Below, piece by piece: positions 2,867 to 36,200 of a DNA stretch of 64,000 nucleotides; positions within the stretch are counted from its first letter, which is position 1; the number at the start of each line of letters is the position of its first letter. Under the pieces are notes generated by a model. The model saw only the letters and a program-made list of their open reading frames with translations. It had not been told where the DNA came from and searched no databases. Position numbers and translations under genes: made by a program. The stretch comes from Minisyncoccia bacterium (GTDB lineage: Bacteria > Patescibacteriota > Minisyncoccia > Phycocordibacterales > Phycocordibacteraceae), in NCBI GenBank assembly GCA_038207395.1, contig JBBQZW010000003.1, forward strand, positions 18,131 to 82,130. Reading direction: 5' to 3'.

Positions 2867-4027
2867 ATGTGGCCTTTTAAACGCAACACTAGTTCGTCGA
2901 TGGTGCTTATCACCATCGGTTCATCTGCAGTGTCCGGTGCGTATGTCTCATACGAAACAGGAAAGATACCCACGATGTACTACACATCGCGTCACTCAAT
3001 CGAGCTCCGTTCAAATGAGACCCTACAAAGCGCCATGCTTCGTGCACTCGATGCTGTAGGAACTGACTTAATTGAAATTGGTGCACCGATACTTAGGCGA
3101 GAGACAGGAAGTGGGCATGTTGATGGTGTACTTGTATCTGTGGCAGGACCATGGCAGGAAACCCGTGTCCGTACAGAGACTATTCAACCAGGAAAACCCT
3201 TTATCTTTACGCGTGCGATGCTGAGCGAAGTAGTGTCCGCAGGAGACAAAACTCCTAGTGACCGCGTGAGTTTCGGTGAACAGGTAATCGCAACTATCCT
3301 TAACGGCTATGACATACCACAGGCTATTGGGAAAAAAGCTAACCGCGCTGAAGTGGTTATCCTTTCCTCGACCCTTGATAAAGGGGTGACTGAGCAGGTA
3401 CGTGAGCGCGTGCGAAAGCTGTATCACACCCACACCATTACCTTCACCGCATTTGCTCCCGTAACCTACGCTGTACTTCGTGACTTATACCCTCATGAAC
3501 GAGACTTCCTTGCGCTTGATGTTGCCGCAGAAGACACTGATCTTGCCTTTGTAAAAGGGAATTTACTGGTAGACGTTGGCACGTTACCGTTTGGGCTTTC
3601 CGCGCTTTTAACGGCAACGAGGAGTGCAGAGCGCATGACGGTTGAGGAAGAATCTGGCATTGCGCACAAGATGGGGGATCAGCCTGGATATATTAACCCT
3701 GACCGTAACGCTCGTTTCTCTACACGCGTAGACGCAGCGCGCGATCAATGGCTTACCGGTCTTGCTGAATTACTTAAAAAGTTTGCACAGCTTCATGCGC
3801 TTCCTCGTACCCTTTTTGTACTTACTCCGCCAAATGCGCGTGATTATCTGAAACGTTCGCTAAACAGTACGATTCTTCACACTCTTTGGCTTTCTGATGA
3901 GCCGCTCTCGATAATTATGATTACCTCTGAACAATTCTCTTCAAAGCTTCGTTCAAAAGCTGATCAAGAAATTCCTATCTTTCTTGCAATTCTTTCCTTG
4001 TACCAGCAAAAGATGTTTTCTACCTAA
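2867..4027 (+). CDS. hypothetical protein (possible actin-like/ASKHA ATPase fold)
   Basis: 386-aa ORF. The N-terminal LITIGSSAVSGAYVSYETGK and LDVAAEDTDLAFV segments resemble sugar-kinase/actin-fold phosphate-binding loops. No firm family assignment. Confidence 0.45.
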   Translation: MWPFKRNTSSSMVLITIGSSAVSGAYVSYETGKIPTMYYTSRHSIELRSNETLQSAMLRALDAVGTDLIEIGAPILRRETGSGHVDGVLVSVAGPWQETRVRTETIQPGKPFIFTRAMLSEVVSAGDKTPSDRVSFGEQVIATILNGYDIPQAIGKKANRAEVVILSSTLDKGVTEQVRERVRKLYHTHTITFTAFAPVTYAVLRDLYPHERDFLALDVAAEDTDLAFVKGNLLVDVGTLPFGLSALLTATRSAERMTVEEESGIAHKMGDQPGYINPDRNARFSTRVDAARDQWLTGLAELLKKFAQLHALPRTLFVLTPPNARDYLKRSLNSTILHTLWLSDEPLSIIMITSEQFSSKLRSKADQEIPIFLAILSLYQQKMFST

Positions 4028-5376
4028 TTACCTTTCTCCTTTGCATTTAGGGCGTCTTGCGCTGCACTTTGCCCTGCCACGGTTCCGCTCGTCCAACATA
4101 GTTGAAGACTGTATCCTCCTGAGGGGCGGTCAATGTTGAGAAGATCTCCAATGACATACAGGTTGCTTAGTATCTTCGAACGCATAGTTCGTGTGTCTAT
4201 TTCCGTGAGATCCACACCCCCGCTTGCGATGATTGCTTTTTCAAAACCAAGACGTCCTTTCACGTGTATAGAAATGTTTTTAATACATCCACCAAGCGTA
4301 ATGCGTTGTTCACGTGTTATTGAGTGAGCGGGGGTATCTTCCAATACACGCGCATCCTTAACTACCACTGACACCAGCGCTGAGGGCATGAGGGACGAAA
4401 GAATATTGCGTATCTTGCGGTTAGGTTCAGCAGCAATAGCATCCTGAAGAATGATATTCATATCCTCAACACTATCCTTTGGTCGAAGATCAAGACTTAG
4501 GAGGACGGGGCCATAGGGAAGACGTTCACCTACGTCTTTACTAAGATTAAGGACTGCAGGGCCACTAATGCCTTGATGGGTAAATACCATACCTCCGCTT
4601 TGCTTTAGCACTTTTTTGCCTTCTTCAACGAGTGAAAGGGTAATGTCGGGAAGACTAAGACCTGAGAGCGGAGCCACCCATTCATCTTTTACCGTAAGGG
4701 GCACAAGAGACGGATCAGGTTTTGCAACAGTGTGGCCAAGTGACGTGAGCCAGGTAAAACCGTCTCCCGTTGAGCCAGTATCAGGACGTGAAAGGCCTCC
4801 GGTCGCTAAGATATAGGCGTGCGCGTTGATGCGCTGATCATTTACAAGGGTTACGTGAGTAATCAGACCGTCCTTACTGGCAATATTCTTTACATTCGTT
4901 CCCTTAATTACATGTACCGAACCATCGGCTAGGAAATCTTGAAATACTTCCCATACTGACTCAGCACTGTCTGTTACAGGAAAAACACGTTCACGCGCTT
5001 CAACTTTCGTGGCAAGTCCTCGAGTATTGAAAAAAGAAAGACTGTCGGAAACTCCGTGACGAGAGAAGGGAGAAAAGAGGAACTGATCTGCAGCCTTTCC
5101 TTTGGAATTAAACTTTGACAGAAAGACTCGAGGATTCTTTTCTGCATTTGTGACGTTACACCGCCCACCACCCGTAATGAGAAGTTTCTTTCCAAGGAGA
5201 GTGTTCTTTTCAATAAGTACCACCCGTGCTCCGGAAGCAGCGGCTTGGCCAGCAGCCATCATACCGGCGGCTCCGCCGCCGATTACGGCCACGTCCCAGA
5301 TATCACTCTTTTGCTTTTGTTCACCAGCTTTCATTCTCCCCACACTAGCGCGTATAGGCCATATTGTCTCTTTCAT
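4024..5376 (-). CDS. HI0933-family NAD(P)/FAD-dependent flavoprotein (aminoacetone-oxidase-like)
   Basis: VAVIGGGAAGMMAAG is a Rossmann FAD motif, and LLITGGGRCNVTN is the hallmark of the HI0933 family. Confidence 0.8.
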   Translation of the reverse strand: MKETIWPIRASVGRMKAGEQKQKSDIWDVAVIGGGAAGMMAAGQAAASGARVVLIEKNTLLGKKLLITGGGRCNVTNAEKNPRVFLSKFNSKGKAADQFLFSPFSRHGVSDSLSFFNTRGLATKVEARERVFPVTDSAESVWEVFQDFLADGSVHVIKGTNVKNIASKDGLITHVTLVNDQRINAHAYILATGGLSRPDTGSTGDGFTWLTSLGHTVAKPDPSLVPLTVKDEWVAPLSGLSLPDITLSLVEEGKKVLKQSGGMVFTHQGISGPAVLNLSKDVGERLPYGPVLLSLDLRPKDSVEDMNIILQDAIAAEPNRKIRNILSSLMPSALVSVVVKDARVLEDTPAHSITREQRITLGGCIKNISIHVKGRLGFEKAIIASGGVDLTEIDTRTMRSKILSNLYVIGDLLNIDRPSGGYSLQLCWTSGTVAGQSAAQDALNAKEKGN

Positions 5377-5623
5377 GTTATTTCGTCAGAAGACATACCA
5401 GATGTTGAGTGTTCCAATTACTGTGATATACCTTTACTCGGTGTTCCCAAATCAATAGGAGAAGATACGTGCACGATCCCGCATCAGCCATTCCTGCGTA
5501 CCTCATAATTTTGCTGCTCATTGGTGCGGCAGTATGCAGTCGCTGTTTCCCAAACTGGGACAAGTGACCAGAGAGTGAAAGCGTTCATGGTGCCTATTCA
5601 ATTTGTTGCAAAACTGCACTCGT

Positions 5624-5660
5624 GCACCGTCCTTACAAGTAAGGACGGTGCATTTATTTA
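5624..5660 (+). terminator. hairpin gcaccgtcctta-caag-taaggacggtgc followed by atttattt
   Basis: Perfect 12-bp stem plus a T-rich tail, in the intergenic region upstream of the 5791 ORF. Confidence 0.4.
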
Positions 5661-5790
5661 AGTGACACATGAATAGCGCTCCATAAATCGCTCATTTCTT
5701 TCACATCCCCATGTTTTGAGGACAAGCTTTTTATACGGGTTATACTGTATGAATACTGGCAGGGCGCTTTATTGGTAACTTTTATAAGGC

Positions 5791-7104
5791 ATGGCAAAAA
5801 CAATTACGGACATAATTCCTCCATCACGCCGACGACAGATGGAGCAAAACGGCGAAGCGCCCGGACCCTACACCCCAGAAGGTATTCCTGACTACACACC
5901 ACCTGTCCCTCCTCCATTCCAGCCCCCAACACCTCCACGCCCTCTTATGGATGACGAAGCACCACGCCGCCGCAGTAATTCGGGTTCACGTCAGTTCCCG
6001 TGGGGAATTGCACTTATCGCTCTCATTATCGTCGTTGGTTCGGTAGGAGTACTCTTTGCCTTTGCCTCGGCACAAGTAACCATTACCCCAACAGCAAAGA
6101 CCACGGTGGTGACCGGAGATTTTAGCGCCACGTTTAATTCAGGAGATCTTCCGTATCAGATTGTGTCCGTAGAGAAAACCGTCAGCGCAAACGTACCTGC
6201 AGAAAGTACTGAGACCGTAAACGATCCTGCCCACGGAACCATTACCATCTCAAACACTCAAGAAACGTCTCAGACACTTATTAAAAACACGCGCTTCCAG
6301 ACAGCTGCGGGACTCGTGTTCCGCATTCAAGATTCAGTGACCATCCCAGGAGGTTCAATTAGCTCACCTGGCACAGTCAAAGCAACTGTTTCTGCTGACA
6401 CCGGAGGAGAGCAGTACAATATTGCACCCGCTACGTTTAGCGTTCCAGGACTCAAAGGCTCTGCTTCGTTTGATAAAGTAACAGCAAAATCCACCGAGGC
6501 ATTTACGGGCGGATTCTCGGGAACACGTCCCAGCGTAAGTGAAGGCACACGCACAACCCAAAACCAAAAGAGTCAGGCCGCGCTTACCGAATCCCTCACC
6601 GAAGCCGTAACAGCCGAACTTCCTTCTGGATATATTGTCATTCCTGGAGCAACCACCTTCACCTATGCGCCAGAAACTGACACTGTTGGCAAAAGCAATT
6701 CAGTAAATGTAAACCTAAAAGGAACTGCAGTTGCTGTGGCAGTACCAAGTGCTGCGCTCGCTAAGGCAATCTCATTCCGTACTAATGGAAGCTACACCGG
6801 CCAACCAGTTACTATTAAAAATCCCGGCAGTCTGGCACTTGCACCAAACACGCAGGGAACACCAACCGCAGAGCAAGGTACGTATACCTTTACTCTTAGC
6901 GGAAACGCCACGATCATATACGACATAGACGCGACGAAAATAGCTGGCGCCGTAGCCGGAAAAAATCGCACCGCAGCCTACACAATAATCCAAGGATTCC
7001 CTGAAGTAGACCGTGCAGTTCTTAACGTACGACCGTTCTGGAAGACCTCATTCCCTGACGATCCTGCAAGTATCAAAGTCTCAACGACAAGCTCGAGTGA
7101 GTAA
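5791..7104 (+). CDS. hypothetical membrane-anchored protein (Pro-rich cytoplasmic N-terminus, one TM, large extracytoplasmic domain)
   Basis: PPVPPPFQPPTPPRP followed by the hydrophobic GIALIALIIVVGSVGVLFAF. A rho-independent terminator follows directly. Confidence 0.6.
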   Translation: MAKTITDIIPPSRRRQMEQNGEAPGPYTPEGIPDYTPPVPPPFQPPTPPRPLMDDEAPRRRSNSGSRQFPWGIALIALIIVVGSVGVLFAFASAQVTITPTAKTTVVTGDFSATFNSGDLPYQIVSVEKTVSANVPAESTETVNDPAHGTITISNTQETSQTLIKNTRFQTAAGLVFRIQDSVTIPGGSISSPGTVKATVSADTGGEQYNIAPATFSVPGLKGSASFDKVTAKSTEAFTGGFSGTRPSVSEGTRTTQNQKSQAALTESLTEAVTAELPSGYIVIPGATTFTYAPETDTVGKSNSVNVNLKGTAVAVAVPSAALAKAISFRTNGSYTGQPVTIKNPGSLALAPNTQGTPTAEQGTYTFTLSGNATIIYDIDATKIAGAVAGKNRTAAYTIIQGFPEVDRAVLNVRPFWKTSFPDDPASIKVSTTSSSE

Positions 7105-7126
7105 GTACAACTATCGTTAAGTACAT

Positions 7127-7156
7127 AAAAAGGCGCCTTAGCGGCGCCTTTTTATG
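7127..7156 (+). terminator. rho-independent terminator
   Basis: aaaaaggcgcc-ttag-cggcgcctttttat. Confidence 0.65.
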
Positions 7157-7237
7157 TACCTACCTTTCGCAAGAACAATAAATGTTGGAATTTTTATCCA
7201 ACGCGTGGTAGGTTTTGTCTAGACATTTTCAGTTCTG

Positions 7238-7747
7238 ATGGAGAGTTATATGTCACTGGCATTAACCAATGTAAGTGTTGTACAAATTGAACTTAGGAAG
7301 AGACAACACCGAGATATACCAAGTCGCTGGTTCCAGCGAAAACGAAATGGAGTTCCTATTAATCCTGGGGAGGAATCGCTGGAAATACTTGGTCCTACTA
7401 CGAACACATCGTTAAGTTCACTTACTCAAAATTTGTTAAACGAAGGATTTGTCTATTCCTTCGGCTTTGCGCGTAAATCTGAAGACAGAAATAAAGTTCC
7501 TTATTATAGGCTCGTTTTTTTCTTGGTACGTAGCAATTACCGAAGACTCCCTCACGACAAAGACTCGAATGACGAATTATTCTTCCAGCTCATGACGAAA
7601 GACGAGTCATGGAACGTCAGCGCTAAGGCGCATCCCATGATAGATATTCCGTCAAAATACTGCTTGACCATTACTGCACTACACGAGAAACCACCAAAAA
7701 CCAGGGGATCGCTTGTGGTAGGAGCACCTTTGCAAGTGATCGGCTAG
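7238..7747 (+). CDS. hypothetical protein (weak call; the region could instead be non-coding RNA)
   Basis: 169-aa ORF with no recognisable motifs. It lies between two terminators at 7127-7156 and 7752-7781. Confidence 0.3.
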   Translation: MESYMSLALTNVSVVQIELRKRQHRDIPSRWFQRKRNGVPINPGEESLEILGPTTNTSLSSLTQNLLNEGFVYSFGFARKSEDRNKVPYYRLVFFLVRSNYRRLPHDKDSNDELFFQLMTKDESWNVSAKAHPMIDIPSKYCLTITALHEKPPKTRGSLVVGAPLQVIG

Positions 7748-7751
7748 CATT

Positions 7752-7781
7752 CTGGACACCGTAACTGGTGTCCATTTTTTT
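7752..7781 (+). terminator. rho-independent terminator
   Basis: ggacaccgtaactggtgtcc followed by attttttt. Confidence 0.55.
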
Positions 7782-7883
7782 AATAGACAGTCTTCAGAGA
7801 TGATTGAATTCACTACGTAGAGGGAAATCCTTATCTACCCGTTGACGCGCCACAGCCTATTTGGTACATTAATAAAGCTACAC

Positions 7884-8099
7884 ATGGAGGAAACAAAGAC
7901 AGATGCACCAACCGGTACCGTAGAAGAGGTACTGCCTAATTCTTTGTTCCGTGTACGCATGCCTGACGGCGAGCTCGTATTAAGTTACCTCGCTGGAAAA
8001 ATGCGTTTACATCGCATCCGCGTATTGGTTGGAGACAAGGTAGAACTCGTCTTAGACCCCTACGGAGGACGCGCTCGTGTCGTTCGTCGCTTGTCGTAG
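7884..8099 (+). CDS. infA: translation initiation factor IF-1
   Basis: [50 protein letters not shown] matches the IF-1 S1-like fold sequence. ATG at 7884 within ORF 7842..8099. Confidence 0.85.
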
Positions 8100-14787: not shown

Positions 14788-16692
14788 ATGGCAAAAATTC
14801 TAGGTATTGACCTGGGTACAACAAACTCCGCCATGGCCATCATGGAAGGAGGCGAACCACGCGTTATTGAAAACGCTGAGGGAGCACGTACAACTCCTTC
14901 AATCGTAGCGATAGCAAAGAACGGTGAACGTCTTGTGGGAACACTCGCAAAGCGCCAGGCCGTAACAAACCCAAAAAATACTATCTACGGTATTAAGCGC
15001 TTTATGGGTCATCGTTTTGAGGATGATGTGGTTAAGAAGGATAAGGATGTTCTTCCGTATGAAGTTAAGGCAGGTCCTGATGGAGGGGTTGTCGCACATC
15101 TTGGTGATAAGGACTATCGTCCTGAAGAAATTTCAGCGATGATCCTCACAAAGCTTAAGACCGATGCTGAAGCAAAGCTTGGCGAGAAAATCACAGAAGC
15201 CGTTATTACGGTGCCTGCATACTTTGACGACGCACAGCGAAATGCAACAAAGGCTGCCGGGGAAGTTGCAGGTCTGAAAGTTCTACGCATCATCAATGAA
15301 CCAACGGCTGCTGCGCTCGCATATGGATTTAATAAGAAGAAGGAAGAAAAGATTGTGGTGTATGACTTCGGAGGAGGAACATTCGACGTTTCTGTTCTTG
15401 AGGTGGGTGACGATGTTATCGAAGTAAAGTCTACAGACGGTGACTCACATATGGGTGGCCGCGACATTGACCAGAAAATTGTCCGCTGGATCGCTGACGA
15501 ATATAAAAAGGAAAGCGGCATTGATGTAACGAAGGACGCACTCGCGCTTCAGCGTCTTGATGAAGCTGCAGAAAAGGCAAAGCACGAGCTTTCAAGTTCT
15601 GCGGAAACGGAGATCAATATTCCGTTCATCACTTCAACGTCAGAGGGACCTCAGCACCTCCTTATTAAGCTCTCTCGCTCAACGCTCGAGCAGCTGGCGT
15701 CTGAGTATGTCACGCGTTCTATAGACATTGTTAAGCGCGCACTTGAGGCGGCTAATATGAAGGCAGGAGACATCAACGAAATTATCATGGTGGGCGGTCA
15801 GACCCGTATGCCACTCATTCAGGAAGAGGTGAAGAAAATCTTTGGAAAGGATCTTCACATGGGTGTTAACCCTGACGAGGTGGTTGCCATTGGTGCGGCT
15901 ATTCAGGCAGGTATTCTCCAAGGAGATGTTAAGGATATTCTTCTCGTGGACGTTATCCCGCTCTCACTCTCTATTGAGACCATGGGCGGCGTTGCCACCA
16001 AACTCATCGAGCGCAACACGGCAGTCCCAACCTCACGCAGTCAGACATTCTCAACTGCCGCTGATAACCAGACCAGCGTTGAGATTCATGTGGTTCAGGG
16101 AGAGCGCGCAATGGCTAACGACAACAAAGACCTAGGCAAGTTTACGCTTGATGGTATTCCACCAGCTCCGCGCGGTATGCCGCAGGTTGAGGTTTCCTTT
16201 GACCTTGATACCAACGGAATCCTCACCGTGAAGGCAAAGGATAAGACAAGTGGAAAAGAGCAGTCCATCACTATCACCGGTTCAACAGGTCTCTCTCAAG
16301 CTGACATCGACAAGATGAAAGCTGACGCGGAAACGCATGCTGATGAGGACGCAAAGCGTAAGGAGATTATCGAAGCAAAGAACCTTGCCGAGCAGCTCAT
16401 CTACACGGCTGAGAAAGCACTAAAGGATGCAGGTGACAAAGCTCCAGCTGACGTGGTTACGGAAGTAAATGAGAAAATTACGGCGCTTCGTACTGCGCGC
16501 GAAGGAGATGACCTCGCCGCAATAACGACTGCCTCAGAAGCACTCGGAACCTCTCTCTCAAAGATTGGTGAAGCAATGCAAAAGGCTCAGGCTGAGCAGG
16601 GAACAGCTGAGAGTGCACCTGCTGAAGGAACAGCTCCTGATGCTGCTGCCACCGACGCAGAGTTCACGGAGAAACCTGAAGAGGCTGCGTAA
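14788..16692 (+). CDS. dnaK: molecular chaperone DnaK (Hsp70)
   Basis: [29 protein letters not shown] and [10 protein letters not shown]-type motifs. Confidence 0.97.
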
Positions 16693-20283: not shown

Positions 20284-20369
20284 GCGTCGGTGGCAGAGTG
20301 GTCAATTGCAAGGGACTGTAAATCCCTCGACTCCGGTCTACGAAGGTTCGAATCCTTCCCGGCGCACCA
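20284..20369 (+). tRNA. tRNA-Tyr (anticodon GTA), type II with long variable arm, CCA encoded
   Basis: Acceptor stem GCGTCGG/CCGGCGC with one G-U pair. Anticodon stem AGGGA/TCCCT with loop CTGTAAA. T-arm GAAGG-TTCGAAT-CCTTC. 3' end ACCA. Confidence 0.85.
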
Positions 20370-27621: not shown

Positions 27622-28686
27622 ATGCTCTACTTTGAAGCCGCGCGCGTATTAATTCCCTTCATTGTCTCATTTTCTGTAGGCATTGTACTTGCACCGGTAC
27701 TTGCACACTATTTGTACAAATATAAGGCGTGGAAAAAGAAGGGAGGGAAAGGAAAGGGAATTGGTGACGGAAACGGCACGCCTCTTTTTGATAGTCTGCA
27801 CAAGGAACGCGAAGTTTCGACGCCGCGGCTTGGCGGTATCCTAGTCTGGACCTCAGTATTTACGACAGCGCTACTCCTTGCACTTCTTAGCTTCTTTATA
27901 GGCGGACCGTATTCTTCCCTAAACCTTGTTGACCGCGGGCAAACCTGGCTTCCGCTCTTTGCGCTTATCGTAGGAGGACTTACCGGACTCGTCGATGATG
28001 TTCTGGAGATTCGCACCTCAGCCGGAGGACTTTCTATGCGGTGGCGTCTGCTTGTGGTGGCCGTCTTCGGTGCGTTTGCCGGATGGTGGTTCTACGCAAA
28101 ACTTGGTGTTTCAAGTATCGGTGTTCCATTCTTTGGTGCTATTCCTCTTGGTGGGTTCTTTATTCTCTTTTTCGTACTTGTAACCCTAACCCTGTATGCC
28201 AGTGGTGTTATTGATGGCATTGATGGTCTGGCGGGTGGCGTCTTCTCCATCATCTTTATGGCGTATGCGGGGATTGCCTTTGCTCAAAACCAAGTCTCGC
28301 TCGCCGCATTCGCTGCCACGGTCTCAGGTGCCACGTTTGCCTTCCTTTGGTTCAACATTCCTCCTGCACGCTTTTATCTTTCGGAAACAGGTTCAATGGC
28401 CTTAACCCTTGCACTTGCCGTTACAGCGTTTTCTGCAGACTCACTTGGAGACGGAGTTGGCGTCTTTGTCCTGCCAATTATTGCGCTCCCCCTCTTTGCC
28501 ACGGTAGTCGGGAATGTACTCCAGGTATTCTGGAAAAAAGTATTTAAACGCAAACTCTTCCGTATTGCTCCTATTCATCATCATTTTGAAGCAATTGGCT
28601 GGCCTGCATATAAAGTAGCGATGCGGTACTGGATTGTAACTATCCTTGCCGGTATCTTTGGCATTGCTATCGCGCTTTTGAAGTAA
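27622..28686 (+). CDS. mraY: phospho-N-acetylmuramoyl-pentapeptide transferase
   Basis: Polytopic membrane protein with DD motif (GLVDDVLEI) and APIHHHFE. Confidence 0.93.
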   Translation: MLYFEAARVLIPFIVSFSVGIVLAPVLAHYLYKYKAWKKKGGKGKGIGDGNGTPLFDSLHKEREVSTPRLGGILVWTSVFTTALLLALLSFFIGGPYSSLNLVDRGQTWLPLFALIVGGLTGLVDDVLEIRTSAGGLSMRWRLLVVAVFGAFAGWWFYAKLGVSSIGVPFFGAIPLGGFFILFFVLVTLTLYASGVIDGIDGLAGGVFSIIFMAYAGIAFAQNQVSLAAFAATVSGATFAFLWFNIPPARFYLSETGSMALTLALAVTAFSADSLGDGVGVFVLPIIALPLFATVVGNVLQVFWKKVFKRKLFRIAPIHHHFEAIGWPAYKVAMRYWIVTILAGIFGIAIALLK

Positions 28687-28708
28687 GTTCTAACCTCACT
28701 CTGCCAGC
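28685..28708 (+). repeat. copy 0 of the AAGTTCTAAC...CAGCCAG repeat family; overlaps the mraY stop codon and sits at the left junction of the insertion
   Basis: taAGTTCTAACctcactCTGCCAGC. It shares AAGTTCTAAC and the CAG..CCAGC tail with the six internal copies. Confidence 0.6.
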
Positions 28709-30186
28709 ATTTCTGAAAAGGTAGGGTTTTGAGGTGCTAAAGCGAATATGTTGTACGGTGATTTGTATTGTATTTCCTCGATATTTCTATTGAGCAACAT
28801 AGAGTTCGATAGTGCTTCTGAGAGTATTTCTCGCTTTCGGTCAGGAAGTGCTGTCTTGTATTCATCCGCCAAGGAATTACCTTGTTTAAACTTAGAATAG
28901 ATGAGTTCGATAGTTGCGAGAGGGTCATGAGCTTTCTTCTCTAGTTCCTGCATGCGCTTGGTGAGCCGTACACTTTCATTATCAATTTCCTTTAATTTGG
29001 CTCTGTAGAGCTCGGTGTCTATGTCTCCCTCGGTGTAGGTGTCTACAAGCCTAGACTTGCGTGTAGTGAGCAATTTGAGGGCTTTCTGAGTATCTTCCAA
29101 GGCATGGTCTTGAGTACCTTTTGAATGATGTAGTTCTTCGAGCTTCGCTTTATAAACGATATCAATCATGCGCTGGCTAATCTTGAGCTTATTGAGGTCG
29201 AGAGTTATTTGTTTGTGGAGTTCAATTTCATTGGCATTGAATGAACGTTGATCGCAAATGCCTTTACCATTAGTGCAGTGATAGTAGATATATTTCTCTT
29301 TCTTGAGTTCAGCAGTAATGGCACAACCGCATTGAGCGCAGGTCATGAAGCCGGAGAGCGTGAACGAAAGAGTCTTGCCTCGTGGTTTGCTTTTCTTAGC
29401 ACAAACTTCCTGGCACTTCTGAAATAGTTCGGATGAAATAAGTGGCTCATGATTGCCTAGATATTGAATGCCATTTGATTCCATGATGCCGCAGTAGAAG
29501 GAACTAGTGAGGATTTTCTGTATACCAGATTTATATACTTTCTTGCCGGAAGAAGTGCGCAGTCCTTGTTCAAAGAGTGTCGTAGAGATTGATTGATGGC
29601 CGTGGAGCCCTGTAGCGTACATTTCAAATATCTTTTGGACGTAGGGAGCACGTGCAGTGTCTAAGGCAATAGTCTTGTTTACTTTGTCGTTTACATATCC
29701 AAAAGGAGCACGGTTAATCCAGTCGCCTCGCTTTAGTTTTTCTCTATTTCCTCGCTTAACATTTAAACTTTTCTGATCGTTCTCTAGCTTTGCTTGGGAA
29801 CACAACATCATGAGCATGAACTTGCTGTTTGGGTCGTTCTTGAATTCTTGGGAGTACGTTTTGACTGAAAGTAGTTTTCCGCTGTCCATGAGGTCTACAA
29901 GCTTTCCTAAGTCTCCTGCATTACGCGAGAGTCTGTCAGGAGCCCAGGTGAGTATTGAGTTGTACAAGCCAGAATTGATACCAGCTATCATGCGATTGAA
30001 CTCAGGGCGCATGTCAGCTTTCTTTGCTGAGTGAGATTCTCTAATTATCTCTACAACATTCAGTTCATTACGTTCTGCAATACGCTTCATCTCATTTTCC
30101 TGAGCGTCCAAGGACATTATTTGTCGCTCCTCGCTTTCTGAGGACTTACGAATGTATAAGACATAGTTTTCCATAGATAGGCGCAT
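28696..30186 (-). CDS. large serine recombinase (phage-type serine integrase)
   Basis: N-terminal resolvase catalytic domain YVLYIRKSSESEERQIMSLDAQ, a recombinase domain, a zinc ribbon (CAQCGC...YYHCTNGKGIC) and a C-terminal coiled coil. Start overlaps Rep stop by 1 nt (TAATG). Confidence 0.88.
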   Translation of the reverse strand: MRLSMENYVLYIRKSSESEERQIMSLDAQENEMKRIAERNELNVVEIIRESHSAKKADMRPEFNRMIAGINSGLYNSILTWAPDRLSRNAGDLGKLVDLMDSGKLLSVKTYSQEFKNDPNSKFMLMMLCSQAKLENDQKSLNVKRGNREKLKRGDWINRAPFGYVNDKVNKTIALDTARAPYVQKIFEMYATGLHGHQSISTTLFEQGLRTSSGKKVYKSGIQKILTSSFYCGIMESNGIQYLGNHEPLISSELFQKCQEVCAKKSKPRGKTLSFTLSGFMTCAQCGCAITAELKKEKYIYYHCTNGKGICDQRSFNANEIELHKQITLDLNKLKISQRMIDIVYKAKLEELHHSKGTQDHALEDTQKALKLLTTRKSRLVDTYTEGDIDTELYRAKLKEIDNESVRLTKRMQELEKKAHDPLATIELIYSKFKQGNSLADEYKTALPDRKREILSEALSNSMLLNRNIEEIQYKSPYNIFALAPQNPTFSEMLAE

Positions 30187-31097
30187 TATGCTCTTTCTGG
30201 GTAATTCCTCAAATCGAGAGATTCAGCAGTTTCTACTGAGTCGATATAAATCTCAGTCATTCGTCGTTTAAGCTGTTGTAGGTTCTCGTTCTTTTTGTGA
30301 AAGTCAAAAGAATCTTCAATTGAGTTAGGTGCAGTGAAAACTATAAACGGTGAATTGAGAGCTACGAATCCGCCTTTCAACTGAAGATTAAAAGGGTAGC
30401 GATCAGCGATTTGCAGTAGTTGTGCAAAGGGAACGTTTCCTTCTCGGAAGTCGTCAAACAAAAGACATTCGTCTTGTTGATACCCTGTACCTGGCCAGTG
30501 ACCATCTGATACGGAACAGATTTCAGTAAAGTTTCTGTATACAAGTGAGGTTTTTCCGACGCCTGTATTTCCATATATCCAAAATACCTTGGGTGGTATG
30601 TTTTGGTCGCGATGTCTTAAATAAATTGGCTGAAGACACTGGGCATAGCGAAGTTGCTGTTGGTTGTTTGCAAACTCATCAATAATTTTATTGAGATCTT
30701 TAGGATTTGCTTTAATAGCTTCTTTGATTTCGCTCATGTCAGTACGAGAACCTTGTTTGCTGGGTTCCCCAAACACAAAGAAGTTTCCATCCTTTTGCGT
30801 ATACGTCTCATTTGTTTCAACACTGCCATTTGCTTTTTCTACATGGAACTTGAGTAGCTCTCCATTTCGAGTGAAGTTTAAATATTTTTGTAGATATGGA
30901 ATACGCTGAGCATTCTTAAGTTCAATATATCCCTGAATGTGAGGAGTTCCGTTTTCTTCACCAATCTCCAAACCGTAGCTAATGTAGTAATGATTTTCTA
31001 ATAAAGCGGCAAGAACGTGTAATCTCTCCAAGTCCTCCTGGGAGTAATTGTTGATAGTAAAACAGTATCTACGGCTTTTAATCTGTTTCTTCTCCAT
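30186..31097 (-). CDS. rep: rolling-circle replication initiator Rep, CRESS-DNA-virus type (HUH endonuclease + SF3 helicase)
   Basis: Motif I CFTINNY, motif II PHIQGYIEL, motif III YTQKDG, Walker A GNTGVGKTS, Walker B LLFDDF, motif C FTAPNS. ATG at 31097; an upstream TTG at 31112 gives the track ORF. Confidence 0.85.
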   Translation of the reverse strand: MEKKQIKSRRYCFTINNYSQEDLERLHVLAALLENHYYISYGLEIGEENGTPHIQGYIELKNAQRIPYLQKYLNFTRNGELLKFHVEKANGSVETNETYTQKDGNFFVFGEPSKQGSRTDMSEIKEAIKANPKDLNKIIDEFANNQQQLRYAQCLQPIYLRHRDQNIPPKVFWIYGNTGVGKTSLVYRNFTEICSVSDGHWPGTGYQQDECLLFDDFREGNVPFAQLLQIADRYPFNLQLKGGFVALNSPFIVFTAPNSIEDSFDFHKKNENLQQLKRRMTEIYIDSVETAESLDLRNYPERA

Positions 31098-31119
31098 ATT
31101 AATTTTGTCCAAATGTCCC

Positions 31120-31149
31120 GAAGTCGGGGGTAATACTATCCCCGACTTC
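31120..31149 (-). other. origin-like stem-loop: 10-bp GC-rich stem with nonanucleotide TAGTATTAC in the loop (minus strand), 23 nt upstream of Rep
   Basis: Plus strand: gaagtcgggg-gtaatactat-ccccgacttc. Minus strand reads GAAGTCGGGG-ATAGTATTAC-CCCCGACTTC. The loop contains the NAGTATTAC nick motif of circo- and nanovirus origins. CCCGAC-containing direct repeats flank it. Confidence 0.6.
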
Positions 31150-31357
31150 CGTGGCGCGGTGCCGGACTAAAGTCCCGACACTCGCCCCGTCCCCAAACAA
31201 GCATCGAATGAGCGAAGCAAGGTGCAGTTGAGCATCATCCGCAGAAACGGCCACGCCTTGGGTGGCGGCCATTTCTGCCTGATACTCCTGAATTAGTGCC
31301 GTACTAAAATGCATTAGCCCACCCTATAAAAAAGGAGAGTGAGTATGGGTGAGAGGT

Positions 31358-32224
31358 TTAGTGAGGATGCTCTAAGTACCGTTCGTGCACGGCGAGGTGG
31401 TCAGCATGAACGCTGAATATTTGAGAGAGTCGTGGGTGCTTTTTAACAAAGCGATTGAGAGCATCTTTATACGATATCTTCTCCGCTTTCATTTTGTTTT
31501 GCTCAAACTCCGGTATGTCGGTATAGTCTATTCTGTTTTCACTGAACTGGTTGAATAGAGCCTTGAGCGCAAAGTGTTCCTTGTTGGGTTTGTTTTGATA
31601 TCCAACTGATACAGTTTGATCATCAAAGTGGAATTCATACCTTTCAGGGTCATACCAAATACCGGCATCTTTAACATCTTCAAAAGAAATGCCGTTATTC
31701 ATTTTCTCTAGTAATCGCTCAATACTTCTAAAGGGCGAAAGGACAATGGTTGCTACAACCTCAGGAGGGTTTCCTTTTATCGCATCTCTCGCGGCATCAA
31801 GAACATCTTTTATATTCATGTCGTTCTCTAAGAAGACTTCTTTAGGAATGAATATGTTTGCGGGTATCGTTTTCTCAATCATGTCTGTACCAGCTAAGTT
31901 TAGTGCTTCAACAAAGTCAGTTGTATCTAGATTCGCAAGTTCATTGAGAACTTTTTCATAGTTTTCATCAGCTAGAAACTTCTGAATCTCAGGGTGAGCT
32001 TTCTGTTCGAATACATAGAAGCCAACGAGATATCCTTTGCTATCAAGTTGGGTAAGGGTGTTCAAAAATACAGGAACGGTTAGAGCGGACAAGTTGATAT
32101 GCTCGTACGTGATTCGGAGCGTATGCTGCTCTTCATCCTTAAGATGGGGTACTTGTTTCCGTGCATGGAAAAGAAGCCTTAAGACGTTGAGGACAGCTAG
32201 TATGTTCTGCTCACGAGGGGTCAT
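31358..32224 (-). CDS. hypothetical protein of the mobile element (288 aa)
   Basis: No recognisable motif and no Arg-rich capsid-like N-terminus. AT-rich like Rep. Confidence 0.5.
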   Translation of the reverse strand: MTPREQNILAVLNVLRLLFHARKQVPHLKDEEQHTLRITYEHINLSALTVPVFLNTLTQLDSKGYLVGFYVFEQKAHPEIQKFLADENYEKVLNELANLDTTDFVEALNLAGTDMIEKTIPANIFIPKEVFLENDMNIKDVLDAARDAIKGNPPEVVATIVLSPFRSIERLLEKMNNGISFEDVKDAGIWYDPERYEFHFDDQTVSVGYQNKPNKEHFALKALFNQFSENRIDYTDIPEFEQNKMKAEKISYKDALNRFVKKHPRLSQIFSVHADHLAVHERYLEHPH

Positions 32225-32248
32225 ATGGGGATATTGTATAGTTATTGC

Positions 32249-33028
32249 ATGAGTTTAGAAGGACCACCACGCAAAAAGAAAACTTTCTATGAAATTCTAG
32301 GAGTAGGCGCTGATGCTTCTGATAAAGAGATTAGTGAATCTTTTAGAGAGCTTTCAAAGAAGTTTCATCCTGATAATCAGGAAAGTGGAGATGAGGAAAA
32401 GTACAAGAAAATCTCTGAGGCGTATACCGCTTTAAAAAAACCAGAATCAAGAGACAAATACGATACTCAACGAGGTCATAGTTCTGCATCAGCTAGCCCG
32501 GGAGCTACACGCCCTACATATGAGGCACGAAAACCACGGGTTATTAATCTCACGATTGAGACTAATAATGGTAAAGCCTTTATAACCAAAGAGGGTAAGC
32601 GAATTTCTAAAGAGTATGACGCAATACAAAAAGCAAAAGAAGGTATTGCTGATTTTTATATCGGTATTCTACCGAACCAAGTAGATATTTTTAATCCAAA
32701 TGGAATGTTTGATATTGTTGAAGCAAGTTATAAATCCATTGAATACAAAAATGGAATTCTGGTTGGTAAAAGCCTTTATGGGAATAGTGAAAGCCTCTTG
32801 AGTTTAAAGAGTGGAAAAGAAGTCATTGGAGGTTACACAGAGTTCAATCTAATCGACGGCCATATTGTCGGAACTAATATGTACGGCACGGGAGTTGATG
32901 TAATTGATTCTAAGACCGGATTACCCATCTCGCATAATTTTAAGACGATTGAGATAGAGGACGGCAAGCTAGTTGCAACAAGTTGGGACGGGAAGAAAGG
33001 CAGGGTTTCCGTTGAGAAAAAGAAATAA
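32249..33028 (+). CDS. J-domain (DnaJ-like) protein with C-terminal glycine-rich repeat domain
   Basis: TFYEILGVGADASDKEISESFRELSKKFHPDN is a canonical J-domain with HPD. C-terminal repeats YKNGILVGKSLYGN / LIDGHIVGTNMYGTG. ATG at 32249 preferred over 32225. Confidence 0.7.
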   Translation: MSLEGPPRKKKTFYEILGVGADASDKEISESFRELSKKFHPDNQESGDEEKYKKISEAYTALKKPESRDKYDTQRGHSSASASPGATRPTYEARKPRVINLTIETNNGKAFITKEGKRISKEYDAIQKAKEGIADFYIGILPNQVDIFNPNGMFDIVEASYKSIEYKNGILVGKSLYGNSESLLSLKSGKEVIGGYTEFNLIDGHIVGTNMYGTGVDVIDSKTGLPISHNFKTIEIEDGKLVATSWDGKKGRVSVEKKK

Positions 33029-33045
33029 TCCCTTTTCAATATACC

Positions 33046-33074
33046 CTTGACATATTCATGTAAAGGGTATATAA
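33046..33074 (+). promoter_or_regulatory. consensus sigma-70 promoter (TTGACA-17-TATAAT) embedded in a 9-bp inverted repeat
   Basis: cccTTGACAtattcatgtaaagggtaTATAATc, with tataccctt...aagggtata arms. An RBS GGGAGA precedes the ATG at 33108. Confidence 0.5.
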
Positions 33075-33107
33075 TCTTTACAAGTTCATTCAATTGGGAG
33101 AATTACA

Positions 33108-33356
33108 ATGACTCAGGCAAGTTTTGTGCTGGAAGACATCGGTTCGGAAAATCGAACCTATGAATTCAGTCAGGACATCGATTTCGCGCCTTACAATGGT
33201 ATGAAGATCGATCTCGGCAATGCTCCGCCCTGCTACGTGCACTCAGCTGTGTACAGGCTGGACGAGCGGAGCTGGAACGTTCGCCTCAAGCCACGGCACA
33301 ATGAGCAAAAGCCCGAGCCTGGAGAGCTTGAGCGGCTCGGGTGGAAGACCTATTAG
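33108..33356 (+). CDS. hypothetical small protein (82 aa), GC-rich cassette-like gene
   Basis: ORF with RBS. GC content is clearly higher than the flanks. A hairpin terminator follows at 33362-33389. Confidence 0.45.
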   Translation: MTQASFVLEDIGSENRTYEFSQDIDFAPYNGMKIDLGNAPPCYVHSAVYRLDERSWNVRLKPRHNEQKPEPGELERLGWKTY

Positions 33357-33401
33357 CTCGAAGCCCCGCTGCAGAAATGTGGCGGGGCTAATTCATTAAT
33401 A

Positions 33402-33430
33402 GAGTTCTAACATCGACCCAGACAGCCAGC
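33402..33430 (+). repeat. copy A of the 28-bp repeat
   Basis: gAGTTCTAACaTCGACCCAGACAGCCAGC. Confidence 0.7.
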
Positions 33431-33529
33431 ACCAAACCACAAAGCCCCATATGTACGTGCTAAAAGAAAGAGGCGGCCCGAAGGTCGCCTCTTTGCGCAA
33501 ATTATCCGGTGCGCATTATTTCGGAATGG

Positions 33530-33865
33530 TCAGGCTTTGAAATATTTGCCTTGCGCACGGGCTTCTCCCCTGGTCTTCCACCCATCTTCACGAAATCCAT
33601 CGTAGTCGTGAGCATACACGTAGAAGTAAAGGGTGATGTTCGGGGTCCCGTCCTCATGGCGCCAGTGGAAAATCTGCGAGACCTCATCTGCCATATCGTC
33701 GCCGAGCTGGAACATTTCGGCTTCGCGAGGAAGAACTGGCCACTCAAACTCCTTGAAAATTGGCTCGAGATCGAGCTTTTCTTTGTCCTCGCAGAATTTT
33801 TCTCCAATACGAACACAAGCTACAAACTTGATCATGTAATCCTCCATCAAAAGAGCTGGGTACAT
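33530..33865 (-). CDS. hypothetical protein (111 aa; may start at the internal Met near 33835)
   Basis: GGAGG RBS upstream of ATG at 33865. A hairpin terminator lies downstream at 33466-33495. Confidence 0.45.
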   Translation of the reverse strand: MYPALLMEDYMIKFVACVRIGEKFCEDKEKLDLEPIFKEFEWPVLPREAEMFQLGDDMADEVSQIFHWRHEDGTPNITLYFYVYAHDYDGFREDGWKTRGEARAQGKYFKA

Positions 33866-33899
33866 ATTACGTCATTAAACATATATTGTCAAGTATAAA

Positions 33900-33927
33900 A
33901 AGTTCTAACGTCGACCCAGACAGCCAC
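33900..33927 (+). repeat. copy B of the 28-bp repeat
   Basis: tataaaAAGTTCTAACGTCGACCCAGACAGCCAcg. Flanked by TTGTCAAGTATA and CTTGACTTATAC. Confidence 0.7.
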
Positions 33928-34020
33928 GGATAAGAAACTTGACTTATACTATATTTCATGCCATCTTATATACAGCGAATTTAAGGAATAAGTTAACCCT
34001 TTCACCTTACGGAGGTCTTT

Positions 34021-34206
34021 ATGCCCGAAGTTCAGAACACTCGCATGTGCGCGACCCCTACTTGCCGCACTCCGGTTACCAACCCGCAGTCAGGTTACTG
34101 CGATTCATGTCTTGAGTTCGATCAGCTGACTTACGACCTTGAAACAGCTCGTTTCCAGCAAGAGCTGGCCGATGAGGATCTTCAACGTTTAATGCAAGGG
34201 GATTAG
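34021..34206 (+). CDS. small zinc-ribbon protein (61 aa)
   Basis: CATPTCRTP...CDSC (two CxxC pairs). A GGAGG RBS lies 7 nt upstream. Confidence 0.45.
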   Translation: MPEVQNTRMCATPTCRTPVTNPQSGYCDSCLEFDQLTYDLETARFQQELADEDLQRLMQGD

Positions 34207-34270
34207 CGGTGCGAATGGAACCCGATCACGCTTTTGGCGAGGTCGGGTTTTCTCTATTTAGAGGTATAAA

Positions 34271-34296
34271 AAGTTCTAACGTCGACCTAAACAGCC
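34271..34296 (+). repeat. copy C of the 28-bp repeat (diverged tail)
   Basis: tataaaAAGTTCTAACGTCGACCtAaACAGCC. Confidence 0.65.
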
Positions 34297-34344
34297 TTGA
34301 AGTAAGAAATTCAAAAGGGAGACCATTGCTGGTCTCCCTTGGGT

Positions 34345-34605
34345 TCAGGAACGAACCCGATTTGCTCCTTCTCCTTCCGCGCCGGTTCCAGCTAGAGCGA
34401 AGATCCATGCCATGACACACAGAACGGGATTTGTGTGCCAGTAGTAGGTTGTCCCGAGGAATGCGGCAAGTAGGCGTGGACAGAAGAGCCACGCCAACCA
34501 GCTCAAGATGCCGAACGGTGTCACCACCGCAAACAGCATCGTGAGACGCGGACAGAAGAGCAGAAAGAATAGAAAGAGCCAGCCGTGGTTTGCCCAGAAG
34601 TCCAT
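34345..34605 (-). CDS. small hydrophobic membrane protein (86 aa)
   Basis: Strongly hydrophobic. RBS GGAGG before the ATG at 34605. Bidirectional hairpin gggagaccattgctggtctccc at 34318-34339. Confidence 0.4.
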   Translation of the reverse strand: MDFWANHGWLFLFFLLFCPRLTMLFAVVTPFGILSWLAWLFCPRLLAAFLGTTYYWHTNPVLCVMAWIFALAGTGAEGEGANRVRS

Positions 34606-34676
34606 GTGAAATCCTCCCTGAATAGGCGATAGCTGAGACTATATTAGCATCATTCATAGTACTTGTCAAGTATAAA

Positions 34677-34705
34677 AAGTTCTAACGTCGACCCAGACAG
34701 CCAGC
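34677..34705 (+). repeat. copy D of the 28-bp repeat
   Basis: cttgtcaagtataaaAAGTTCTAACGTCGACCCAGACAGCCAGC. Confidence 0.7.
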
Positions 34706-34731
34706 GAAAAGTATTTATTCTTGTTAATATT

Positions 34732-35124
34732 ATGTTGATGACAGAAAGTAATGTGCAGGACCAAAAACAAATGACACTTTGGGCAGCCGAATGTGCTGAA
34801 CACGTACTTTCATACTTTGAACAGGAACGGCCTGGAGACATGAGGCCGCGATTAGCGATAGAAGCAGCGCGCGCGTGGGTAAAGGGTGAACTAAAAGTTA
34901 GCGAGGCTAGGACTGCTGCGTTTGATGCTCATGACGCAGCACGCGAGGTAAAAACAGACGCAGCTATCGCTGCGGCGCGTGCAGCAGGCCACGCTGCAGC
35001 TACGGTCCATGTCATAACTCATGCTCCGCACGCGGCAGAGTATGCCGTGAAGGCTGCCGAAGCCGCGAGTATTACAGGTGAACGTAAGTGGCAAAAGACG
35101 CGCGATCAGGTATCAAGAATGTAA
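34732..35124 (+). CDS. hypothetical Ala-rich protein (about 131 aa)
   Basis: Start chosen at the internal ATG (MLMTESNVQDQKQ...) of ORF 34663..35124, because the upstream part overlaps repeat copy D. Confidence 0.4.
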   Translation: MLMTESNVQDQKQMTLWAAECAEHVLSYFEQERPGDMRPRLAIEAARAWVKGELKVSEARTAAFDAHDAAREVKTDAAIAAARAAGHAAATVHVITHAPHAAEYAVKAAEAASITGERKWQKTRDQVSRM

Positions 35125-35125
35125 T

Positions 35126-35154
35126 AAGTTCTAACGTCGACCCAGACAGCCAGC
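35126..35154 (+). repeat. copy E of the 28-bp repeat
   Basis: gtaatAAGTTCTAACGTCGACCCAGACAGCCAGC, directly after the stop codon. Confidence 0.7.
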
Positions 35155-35704
35155 AATGTTTTAAAATAAAATTCAAACAGTGAAAAAGAACGCTACTTTA
35201 GAACCGATAATATAAAAAGGTCCGTGACTTTCGCCACGGACCCTAAAAAGTGCAGATACTTTACTCAATCGCCTGCGCTAAAGACTCGCTTTCGCTGCGC
35301 CTACACCTAACGGCTTAAGCTTGCAAAGATCTGCTGGGACAGCATTTAGGCTTGGAAGATTCCGAGTGACCAATTAGGCATGGTTTCAGATCTCCCTTGT
35401 TCGACTCTTACGAGCTCCTCGGCTCAAATGAATGGCTTTGGAATATGAGCTCTGCCGAGGCTCACACCTACTCTGTAGCTTTCGCCTCATCCACATGCGC
35501 AGTATCCTGCTCATGTTTGCGGGTACGGGACGGAGCCCTTATGGAGGACCCTCCTCTATGGATTTCCCCTGGATTATCGATATGCTAAAGGCCTGGACCG
35601 GTTTCAATATACGGCACTTACTCCCGGTATCTCGGTTGATGTCCACGCTGTCCAGTATTAAGAATACTTCGACTCTAACAGCTGTCAATGTGAGGATGTG
35701 AGGA

Positions 35705-35732
35705 AAGTTCCAACGTTGTCCCAGACAGCCAG
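35705..35732 (+). repeat. copy F of the 28-bp repeat (most diverged)
   Basis: AAGTTCcAACGTtGtCCCAGACAGCCAG. Confidence 0.6.
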
Positions 35733-35740
35733 TGCCACTC

Positions 35741-36115: not shown

Positions 36116-36200
36116 AGATATAGTATATAACCTCTAGGGCAGAGCTTTTATGTGATATCCGTAGCCCTACTTTGTTAGTAATGCACTATACTTACTCACA

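Follow-up and report, generated by a model that had tools for sequence, protein, structure and literature searches.

Introduction

Nine groups of bacterial replication (Rep) proteins resembling those of circular Rep-encoding single-stranded (CRESS) DNA viruses, pCRESS1-9, were described from four phyla by Kazlauskas, Varsani, Koonin, and Krupovic (2019, PMC6668415), and the origin of the eukaryotic CRESS-DNA viruses was traced in that work to bacterial plasmid Reps. Most pCRESS Reps are encoded in site-specifically integrated, capsid-less elements with tyrosine recombinases; a serine recombinase is mentioned neither in the paper nor in its supplements (PMC6668415). Here we describe an element in a 64,000-nucleotide stretch of the contig JBBQZW010000003.1 (assembly GCA_038207395.1; "the window" hereafter means this whole stretch), in which a gene for a CRESS-type Rep is directly followed by int, encoding a large serine recombinase (LSR). 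We interpret the region 28710-33431 as an integrative rolling-circle plasmid of an ultra-small Paceibacteria bacterium, a member of the candidate phyla radiation (CPR), and assign to this reading a probability of about 80%. A preliminary description of the same DNA had recognized the rep gene and its hairpin origin, but it overlooked both the overlapping gene for the serine recombinase, which begins at the rep stop, and the boundaries of the element.

Results

Extent and circular form of the element

Two states of the element were found: a chromosomal copy at the 3' end of mraY, and a circle of 4,722 bp (Table 1). The circle is represented by the Logan contig L001 (run SRR19962014; 4,752 nt), which encodes an identical Rep, matches positions 28703-33431 of the window with 100% identity, ORF82 included, and joins 33431 directly to 28710, the circle (attP) junction. 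The two ends of this contig overlap by 30 nt. A terminal overlap of k-1 is the way in which an assembler working at k = 31, as in the Logan pipeline, prints a cycle. Since a repeat of 7 bp cannot create a false junction, the circle is 4,722 bp long and GCCAGCA is the core common to both junctions.

A second contig from the same sample, L144, contains mraY with its B arm but no element. It crosses the attL core into another right-hand partner, the B arm being joined straight to the neighboring unit U4 at the core of repeat R4, and not to the sequence right of repeat R1. The identical circle and the insertion-free contig, both from a sample other than that of the window, make it probable that the element can still move. 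The end of L144 lies exactly 30 nt beyond its junction, and L001 is linearized exactly at the R1 core; we infer that these are the points at which coexisting integrated, excised, and uninserted forms would make the de Bruijn graph branch.

It could be argued that the window copy is an inactive relic, once mobile and now fixed, with a Rep that is decaying or co-opted, as it is integrated inside an essential gene cluster and the degenerate sites R2, R3, and R6 show decay at the locus. We consider this very improbable: the core open reading frames (ORFs) are all intact, the catalytic residues are kept, the integrated copy retains a complete int ORF, and the 100%-identical circle occurs together with the insertion-free contig in one sample.

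The genes of the element follow the order ORF288, small ORF, origin, rep, and int in the direction of transcription, with the J-domain gene and ORF82 on the opposite strand. A low-GC island at about 28.7-33.1 kb matches the region of the element. In addition, a Logan contig with ftsW from the circle-containing sample is colinear with the window and begins at 36192, between ORF124 and ftsW, which hints at another variable boundary of the inserted region.

Table 1. Coordinates of the element, its genes and sites, and the adjoining repeat array (window positions)
Feature	Position	Strand	Remarks
Whole integrative element	28710-33431	-	4,722 bp; GC 0.42 vs 0.47 in the rest of the window
attL: host B arm, AGTTCTAAC-8 nt-GCCAGCA	28686-28709	+	Overlaps mraY stop codon; 7-bp core 28703-28709
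int, large serine recombinase, 496 aa	28696-30186	-	Pfam Resolvase 2e-22, Recombinase 9e-16, Zn_ribbon_recom 1e-8
rep, HUH endonuclease and SF3 helicase, 303 aa from ATG	30186-31097	-	Stop overlaps int ATG by 1 nt (TAATG)
Small ORF, 71 aa as listed	31099-31314	-	N-terminal ~45 aa conserved as protein; tail crosses origin, no conserved frame
TCGGGAC, candidate Rep-binding (iteron-like) element	31115-31121; second copy 31172-31178	-	First copy directly 3' of hairpin
Plus-strand origin hairpin, 10-bp stem GAAGTCGGGG / loop ATAGTATTAC / CCCCGACTTC	31120-31149	-	Nonanucleotide TAGTATTAC at 31130-31138
Second GC-rich hairpin	31150-31189	-	Upstream of origin; within minimum-free-energy fold
ORF288, family-specific core gene, predicted winged-helix DNA-binding protein	31358-32224	-	Not capsid
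Cargo J-domain (DnaJ) protein, HPD motif	32225-33028	+	Pfam DnaJ 7.7e-19
Cargo ORF82, 82 aa	33108-33356	+	No family match
R1, the element's own attP P arm, AGTTCTAAC-13 nt-GCCAGCA, right junction	33403-33431	+	Core 33425-33431
Repeat array, five units (U1-U5) of 371-579 nt, most with a single plausible ORF	33432-35734	+	GC 0.46-0.51
Unit-ending P-arm copies	R2 33901-33929; R3 34272-34300; R4 34678-34706; R5 35127-35155; R6 35706-35734	+	

Rep protein

The minus-strand ORF of 303 aa carries the ordered motifs reported for it in the preliminary description: CFTINN, HIQGY, YTQK, GNTGVGKTS, LLFDDF, and FTAPN were all found. It matches the Pfam families Viral_Rep (1.5e-11; 44.8 bits against a cut-off of 26) and RNA_helicase (6.3e-7; 30.3 bits against 21.5), and it aligns over both domains with the solved Rep of porcine circovirus 2 (PCV2; 7lar, E = 4.4e-20), with motifs I-III and Walker A and B in register. 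Residues H53, Q55, Y99, G181-K182, and D215-D216 are invariant across 27 Rep homologues of the family; the motif C Asn is variable (TSP/TAP), the window copy reading TAPN. The best Foldseek matches of an AlphaFold2 model (pLDDT 82.8) are Reps of redondoviruses and circoviruses, such as vientovirus Rep 9pqq (3.8e-16), the PCV2 ATPase 8xms (TM score 0.76 at 1.8 A), and circovirus nuclease domains (TM score about 0.8), and they also include nanovirus and geminivirus nuclease domains. These observations support the identification of the protein as a CRESS-type Rep that combines an HUH endonuclease with a superfamily 3 (SF3) helicase. Thus the family assignment and the alignment of catalytic residues, on which the preliminary description had made its reading depend along with conservation of the origin loop, both hold, as does the loop (see below).

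To place the window Rep relative to the bacterial groups, it was scored with phmmer against representatives transcribed from Dataset 3 of PMC6668415, a comparison of single-sequence scores that covered the groups named below. RepA of p4M, from the pCRESS1-3 cluster, reached 42 bits, followed by pCRESS7 (19.5), pCRESS8 (18.5), pCRESS9 (9.6), pCRESS6 (5.3), and pCRESS4 (2.4). Scores against virus Reps were 181 bits for L064, 113 for "Circoviridae sp.", and 76 for PCV2. Judged by these sequence scores, the Rep is outside the tested pCRESS groups and much nearer to the Reps of CRESS viruses.

Replication origin

The perfect 10-bp hairpin that had been noticed before the rep ATG is present, although the gap to the ATG is 22 nt rather than 23 nt, and its loop indeed carries the nonanucleotide TAGTATTAC on the Rep strand. 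When the region was folded, it outperformed 200 of 200 shuffled sequences (z = -4.45), and the sharp rise in GC that had been seen by eye was reproduced (0.60 in 31115-31260 vs 0.39 in rep). By contrast, the flanking direct repeats proposed to contain CCCGAC were not recovered, as the Rep strand has a single copy of this hexamer, which falls within the 3' arm. The true direct repeats are the two copies of TCGGGAC listed in Table 1, plus GTCGGGG in the 5' arm. An element (T/C)GGGA(C/A) lies 3' of the hairpin in 19 of 21 distinct origins of the family, including six of the seven with stems unlike the common GTCGGGG type.

By itself, the nonanucleotide is unremarkable: 0.43 copies are expected in 64 kb, and at least one copy occurred in 35 of 100 shuffles. 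It is significant because it sits in a hairpin loop adjoining rep and is conserved across the family. In almost all of about 30 related loci the hairpin lies 14-50 nt upstream of rep; the nonanucleotide is essentially fixed in these homologues, and the AGTATTA core of the loop is nearly invariant. A perfect stem of 8-11 bp is present in 20 of the 21 distinct origins, which have 12 different stem sequences, all paired, and a count of pairs registered sequence by sequence gave at least two Watson-Crick pair types at each of eight positions. In shuffled flanks a stem of at least 7 bp arose in just 0.26% of trials. RNAalifold applied to a MAFFT alignment of the 21 origins returned nothing beyond a spurious 3-bp helix, because differing loop lengths shift the arms out of register. 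By analogy with circoviruses, the nick site is inferred to lie within the nonanucleotide.

Variable-sequence GC-rich palindromes, often far longer than the second hairpin of the window, occupy the equivalent place in most relatives (L003, L010, L015, L016, and L033). As to their role, a single-strand origin or a Rep-loading site are our guesses.

Integrase and attachment sites

The Int protein aligns with the resolvase catalytic domain 3guv, its serine motif YIRKS lying opposite YTRVS, and its residues 202-405 align with the A118 integrase (4kis). The best NCBIfam matches are far under their cut-offs: CcrB with 104.9 bits (cut-off 900) and CcrA with 93.8 bits (700). The locus shows the features of an LSR integrative element, namely the three domains of the recombinase, a short core shared and identical at the two junctions, an attP on the circle L001, and an element-free junction in L144. 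The distance from AGTTCTAAC to the core is 8 nt in the B arm vs 13 nt in the P arms. A 5-bp shift between the attB and attP half-sites of LSRs was reportedly described by Rutherford and colleagues in 2013, and the difference in spacing observed here matches such a displacement.

The core lies within the last codons of int, and the C-terminus reads ...SEMLAE before the stop in the integrated form vs ...SEMLAVWVDVRTLLMN on the circle. Integration swaps the final 11 residues of the circle-encoded Int for a single Glu (28696-28712 and 33385-33431). Such a state-dependent C-terminus could link the properties of Int to the state of the element.

The position of the junctions also bears on the role of Rep. 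HUH Reps have repeatedly become transposases (PMC10288648), and the element is chromosomal, so that Rep could be imagined to move the segment by rolling-circle transposition, as in IS91, Helitrons, or Replitrons, with the hairpin as a transposon end. The junctions of both the circle and the integrated form, however, are at the serine-recombinase core beside int, about 2.3 kb from the nonanucleotide; each element has one origin, which is internal; and targets at tRNA 3' ends are typical of site-specific integration. We therefore regard a transposase as extremely unlikely.

Host and insertion site

As the preliminary description had stated, the island adjoins mraY (27622-28686), and the element begins just beyond its stop codon. 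The surroundings form a division and cell wall (dcw) cluster, with mraY on one side and ftsW-murG, starting at 36447, on the other. The DnaK encoded in the window is 88-95% identical to proteins of metagenome-assembled genomes (MAGs) named Patescibacteria, Parcubacteria, or Paceibacterota, and the named Rep homologues come from the same groups. The dcw context and DnaK thus bear out the assignment of the Rep and origin to a bacterial chromosome, that of a member of the Paceibacteria (CPR).

In most relatives, int runs into the reverse complement of a tRNA 3' end, and the B arms resemble tRNA 3' ends; read by eye, the B arm of the window aligns with the tRNA ends of the relatives. The chromosomal B arm at 28679-28709 resembles a tRNA T-arm plus acceptor 3' end, the related elements using real tRNA genes. 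A tRNA gene at the insertion site of the window itself was rejected, as ARAGORN and Rfam searches of the window give just tRNA-Tyr at 20284-20369.

Family of related elements

About 90 clusters of related Reps, 43-75% identical, were found, and the contigs that carry them measure between 1 kb and 1 Mb. Wherever the sequence of a family locus extends far enough downstream, rep is directly followed by int, and the recombinases of these relatives are 36-76% identical to the window Int. Frequent companions are ORF288 (39 clusters) and the conserved N-terminus of the small ORF. An exhaustive Rep search gave 15,147 relatives, in which the family amounts to a few representatives at the 50% identity level and is followed by a continuum of CRESS-type Reps at no more than 41%. 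In a rough neighbor-joining tree, whose rooting is not trusted, the Rep-Int members cluster together with the virus L064 outside. A scan of genome contigs yielded a single relative, L006. The Rep-Int family is apparently undescribed.

Measured from the P arm to the end of int, the element of L003, an integrated copy with a tRNA flank, is about 4.4 kb long, and that of L009 about 4.7 kb, as in the window. The elements of L145 (about 6.1 kb) and L148 (about 8.4 kb) are larger: the former carries a ThsB-like Toll/interleukin-1 receptor (TIR) protein beside a SLATT/DUF4231 protein (6935-7995), the latter a complete type II restriction-modification (R-M) pair (5189-7475). The cargo of these relatives is anti-phage. 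The small contigs L003-L005 were checked for circularity, and none was circular.

The recurrence of this architecture also bears on the quality of the assembly. MAG contigs may be chimeric and CRESS viruses are common contaminants, so that a eukaryotic CRESS virus mis-joined to a bacterial contig had to be considered. It would have to be reconciled with the Rep-Int architecture in independent JGI, ENA, NCBI, and Logan assemblies, on contigs of up to 1 Mb, with precise att junctions, and with a rep stop that overlaps a bacterial-type serine recombinase gene. For practical purposes, a chimera or contamination is refuted.

Repeat array beside the element

Beyond the right junction lies an array of five units, each ending in a copy of the P arm. 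The 25-nt P-arm core AGTTCTAACGTCGACCCAGACAGCC is present in six copies with at most three mismatches, all on the plus strand at 33403-35730, and nowhere else in the 64-kb window, 0 copies being expected by chance. The copies R2, R3, and R6 are degenerate sites, and the unit ORFs lie in both orientations. Taken together, the junction of L144 at R4 and that of the circle at R1 imply natural recombination of at least two repeats, R1 and R4, with the site beside mraY. A comparable arrangement was found in a 368-kb contig from an unrelated metagenome (L009), where at 3911-5659 four P-arm sites bound three single-ORF units of 67, 206, and 174 aa beside the 4.7-kb element, and extra P-arm sites also occur in L010, L012, L016, and L145. 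The P-arm pattern had no match in IMG/VR, and an exact-protein look-up for ORF111, the Imm5-like protein (two start variants), ORF86, and ORF124 retrieved no record. Unit U4 encodes an Imm5-like immunity protein (34732-35124; PF21805, 1.2e-39), with no toxin gene seen nearby.

In the simplest reading, modeled on composite islands of the staphylococcal cassette chromosome (SCC), whose small units can lack a recombinase, the array would have arisen as Int made one insertion after another at the mraY-proximal site. This part of our interpretation is the least secure, and the odds between it and decay of earlier elements are roughly even. Some observations tell against successive insertion. When every unit and cargo ORF was searched by tblastn against 148 loci, no match was obtained, and the GC content of the units (Table 1) is host-like. 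Canonical LSRs normally do not target attL-type sites, so that a model of sequential insertion assumes a promiscuity like that of Ccr, and Int matches the Ccr models weakly.

A further-reaching and doubtful suggestion is that the P-arm repeats are working sites and that the Rep-Int element drives a serine-recombinase cassette system in CPR bacteria, an integron analogue made from different parts. If so, the system would capture, stack, and release sub-kilobase, mostly one-ORF cassettes for immunity, membrane, and defense functions at a tRNA-like site, and the excised circles would be amplified by a circovirus-type Rep. An active array would constitute a new route for single-gene exchange among very small genomes.

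Other genes of the element

The small ORF had tblastn matches in 12 loci, and the codon pattern of the alignment is of the synonymous type. Its N-terminus (31180-31314) has the consensus EYxxEMxxxYGVxVxxxxAQxQLxxLVRxMF, which matches no known family. The product is a candidate directionality factor or regulator.

The J-domain protein is specific to the window copy and absent from all other loci compared. Its C-terminal domain has no family match and appears beta-rich by eye. This protein might recruit the host DnaK (encoded at 14788-16692). A J domain is joined to an SF3 helicase in the T antigens of polyomaviruses, a resemblance that we offer as an association only. A PADLOC search gave no defense match for the element's own cargo in the window.

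Discussion

No ORF of the window element matches viral structural families in Pfam or PHROGs, and IMG/VR contains no family member; the best match there (40%) is L064, an ordinary CRESS virus that carries a capsid-like ORF of 359 aa. The closeness of the window Rep to the Reps of such capsid-encoding viruses (181 bits to L064), the canonical viral nonanucleotide of the origin, and the lack of an assigned function for ORF82, the small ORF, and the C-terminal domain of the J-domain protein are also what might be expected of a temperate CRESS-like single-stranded DNA provirus of a CPR bacterium, or of a helper-packaged satellite, with an overly divergent structural protein. We find this unlikely. 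The sole conserved accessory genes are the winged-helix ORF288 and a conserved peptide of about 45 aa, and the ORFs without assignment are copy-specific and thus cannot be the capsid of the family. Moreover, the family is absent from IMG/VR, and the R-M and TIR cargo of the relatives is of a kind that plasmids and genomic islands typically carry. The pCRESS elements, too, were found by Kazlauskas et al. to lack structural proteins (PMC6668415).

Some points nevertheless weigh against an integrative plasmid of the extent proposed here. The circular form is seen in one Logan contig, and a tandem duplicate would yield an identical junction. The insertion-free contig L144 is without U1-U3 as well as the element, and therefore the real mobile unit could be about 6 kb. 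An unrecognized structural protein could also be among the three products that have no assigned fold, namely those of the small ORF and ORF82 and the C-terminal domain of the J-domain protein. Finally, no directionality factor for excision was identified, the small ORF and ORF288 being candidates.

For an integrative rolling-circle plasmid, we propose the following cycle. On the double-stranded circle, attP comprises the R1 P arm, the core, and the 3' end of int; Int would recombine this attP with a chromosomal site resembling a tRNA 3' end. Excision would probably require a directionality factor, possibly the product of the small ORF or ORF288. After excision, Rep would bind near the hairpin, presumably at the TCGGGAC elements, and nick the TAGTATTAC loop via Tyr99 of the YTQK motif, and its SF3 helicase would drive rolling-circle replication. 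The displaced single strand would be turned back into a duplex, the substrate of Int. Variable cargo would be accommodated between ORF288 and the P arm: the J-domain gene here, and an R-M pair or a ThsB-like TIR gene in relatives.

The mobile elements of CPR bacteria are barely known. The element described here suggests a minimal lifestyle, in which four core genes pair rolling-circle replication of viral type with integration by a serine integrase. In addition, Rep with a 30-nt origin and the integrase with its short att sites are compact, separable parts, and both classes of enzymes are already used as tools (HUH-tags and serine integrases).

Comparison with known systems

The array resembles those of integrons in its short, mostly one-ORF units, each ending in a conserved recombination site, beside a recombinase gene. 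Integrons have a tyrosine recombinase, IntI, and a folded single-stranded attC, whereas the window has a serine enzyme on a mobile replicon and ORFs in both orientations. The locus does not belong to the integrons, as its sole recombinase is the serine enzyme and its repeats copy the P arm in direct orientation instead of forming imperfect palindromes of the attC type.

In SCC composite islands, elements lie in tandem at the 3' end of rlmH, and some of them have no recombinase (10.1101/336396, PMC5964201). Like SCCmec and other SCC, the window has an LSR-borne element at the 3' end of a conserved housekeeping gene and tandem units separated by direct att repeats. In contrast to SCC, the window units are 0.4-0.6 kb long with one ORF each, rather than multi-kilobase islands; Int falls far below the Ccr family cut-off (105 bits vs 900); and SCC have no CRESS-type Rep and origin. 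Integrative and conjugative elements (ICEs) and integrated plasmids, for example ICEBs1 with its relaxase NicK, integrate as double-stranded DNA by a recombinase and undergo HUH-initiated rolling-circle replication once excised. Unlike elements of the ICEBs1 type, which combine a relaxase and oriT with a host helicase, the 4.7-kb window element has a viral-type HUH-SF3 fusion and no transfer genes.

With Circoviridae, Redondoviridae, and other Cressdnaviricota the element shares the two-domain Rep with its motifs in register, and also the layout of the origin: a hairpin shortly before rep presents NAGTATTAC in its loop on the strand of that gene, and short repeats adjoin the stem. Unlike these viruses, it lacks a capsid gene, is about twice their genome size, and integrates into a bacterial chromosome via its own recombinase; the identity of the window Rep to Reps outside the family does not exceed about 41%.

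Like the pCRESS elements, the window element combines a CRESS-type nuclease-helicase Rep with variable cargo, lacks a capsid, and is integrated site-specifically at the 3' end of a gene, with flanking att repeats; pCRESS elements often occupy tRNA genes or the 3' ends of protein-coding genes. It differs from them in its large serine recombinase and its CPR host, the pCRESS elements having tyrosine recombinases and conventional phyla as hosts, and motif II of its Rep is HIQGY vs the HxHxhh type in pCRESS4-8 sequences. The preliminary description had called a chromosomal Rep and origin unusual; integrated plasmids with CRESS-type Reps are in fact not rare (PMC6668415), but the lineage, the host, and the recombinase are unusual here. 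In the literature, of which our coverage is incomplete and thus no proof of novelty, nothing was found that links CRESS-type Reps to CPR bacteria or to serine recombinases. Overall, the family represents a prokaryotic lineage whose Rep and TAGTATTAC hairpin origin appear much nearer to the viral ones than those of the tested pCRESS representatives, and it therefore offers a concrete case for testing which way transfer went, from plasmid to virus or by capture of a viral gene in a bacterial element.

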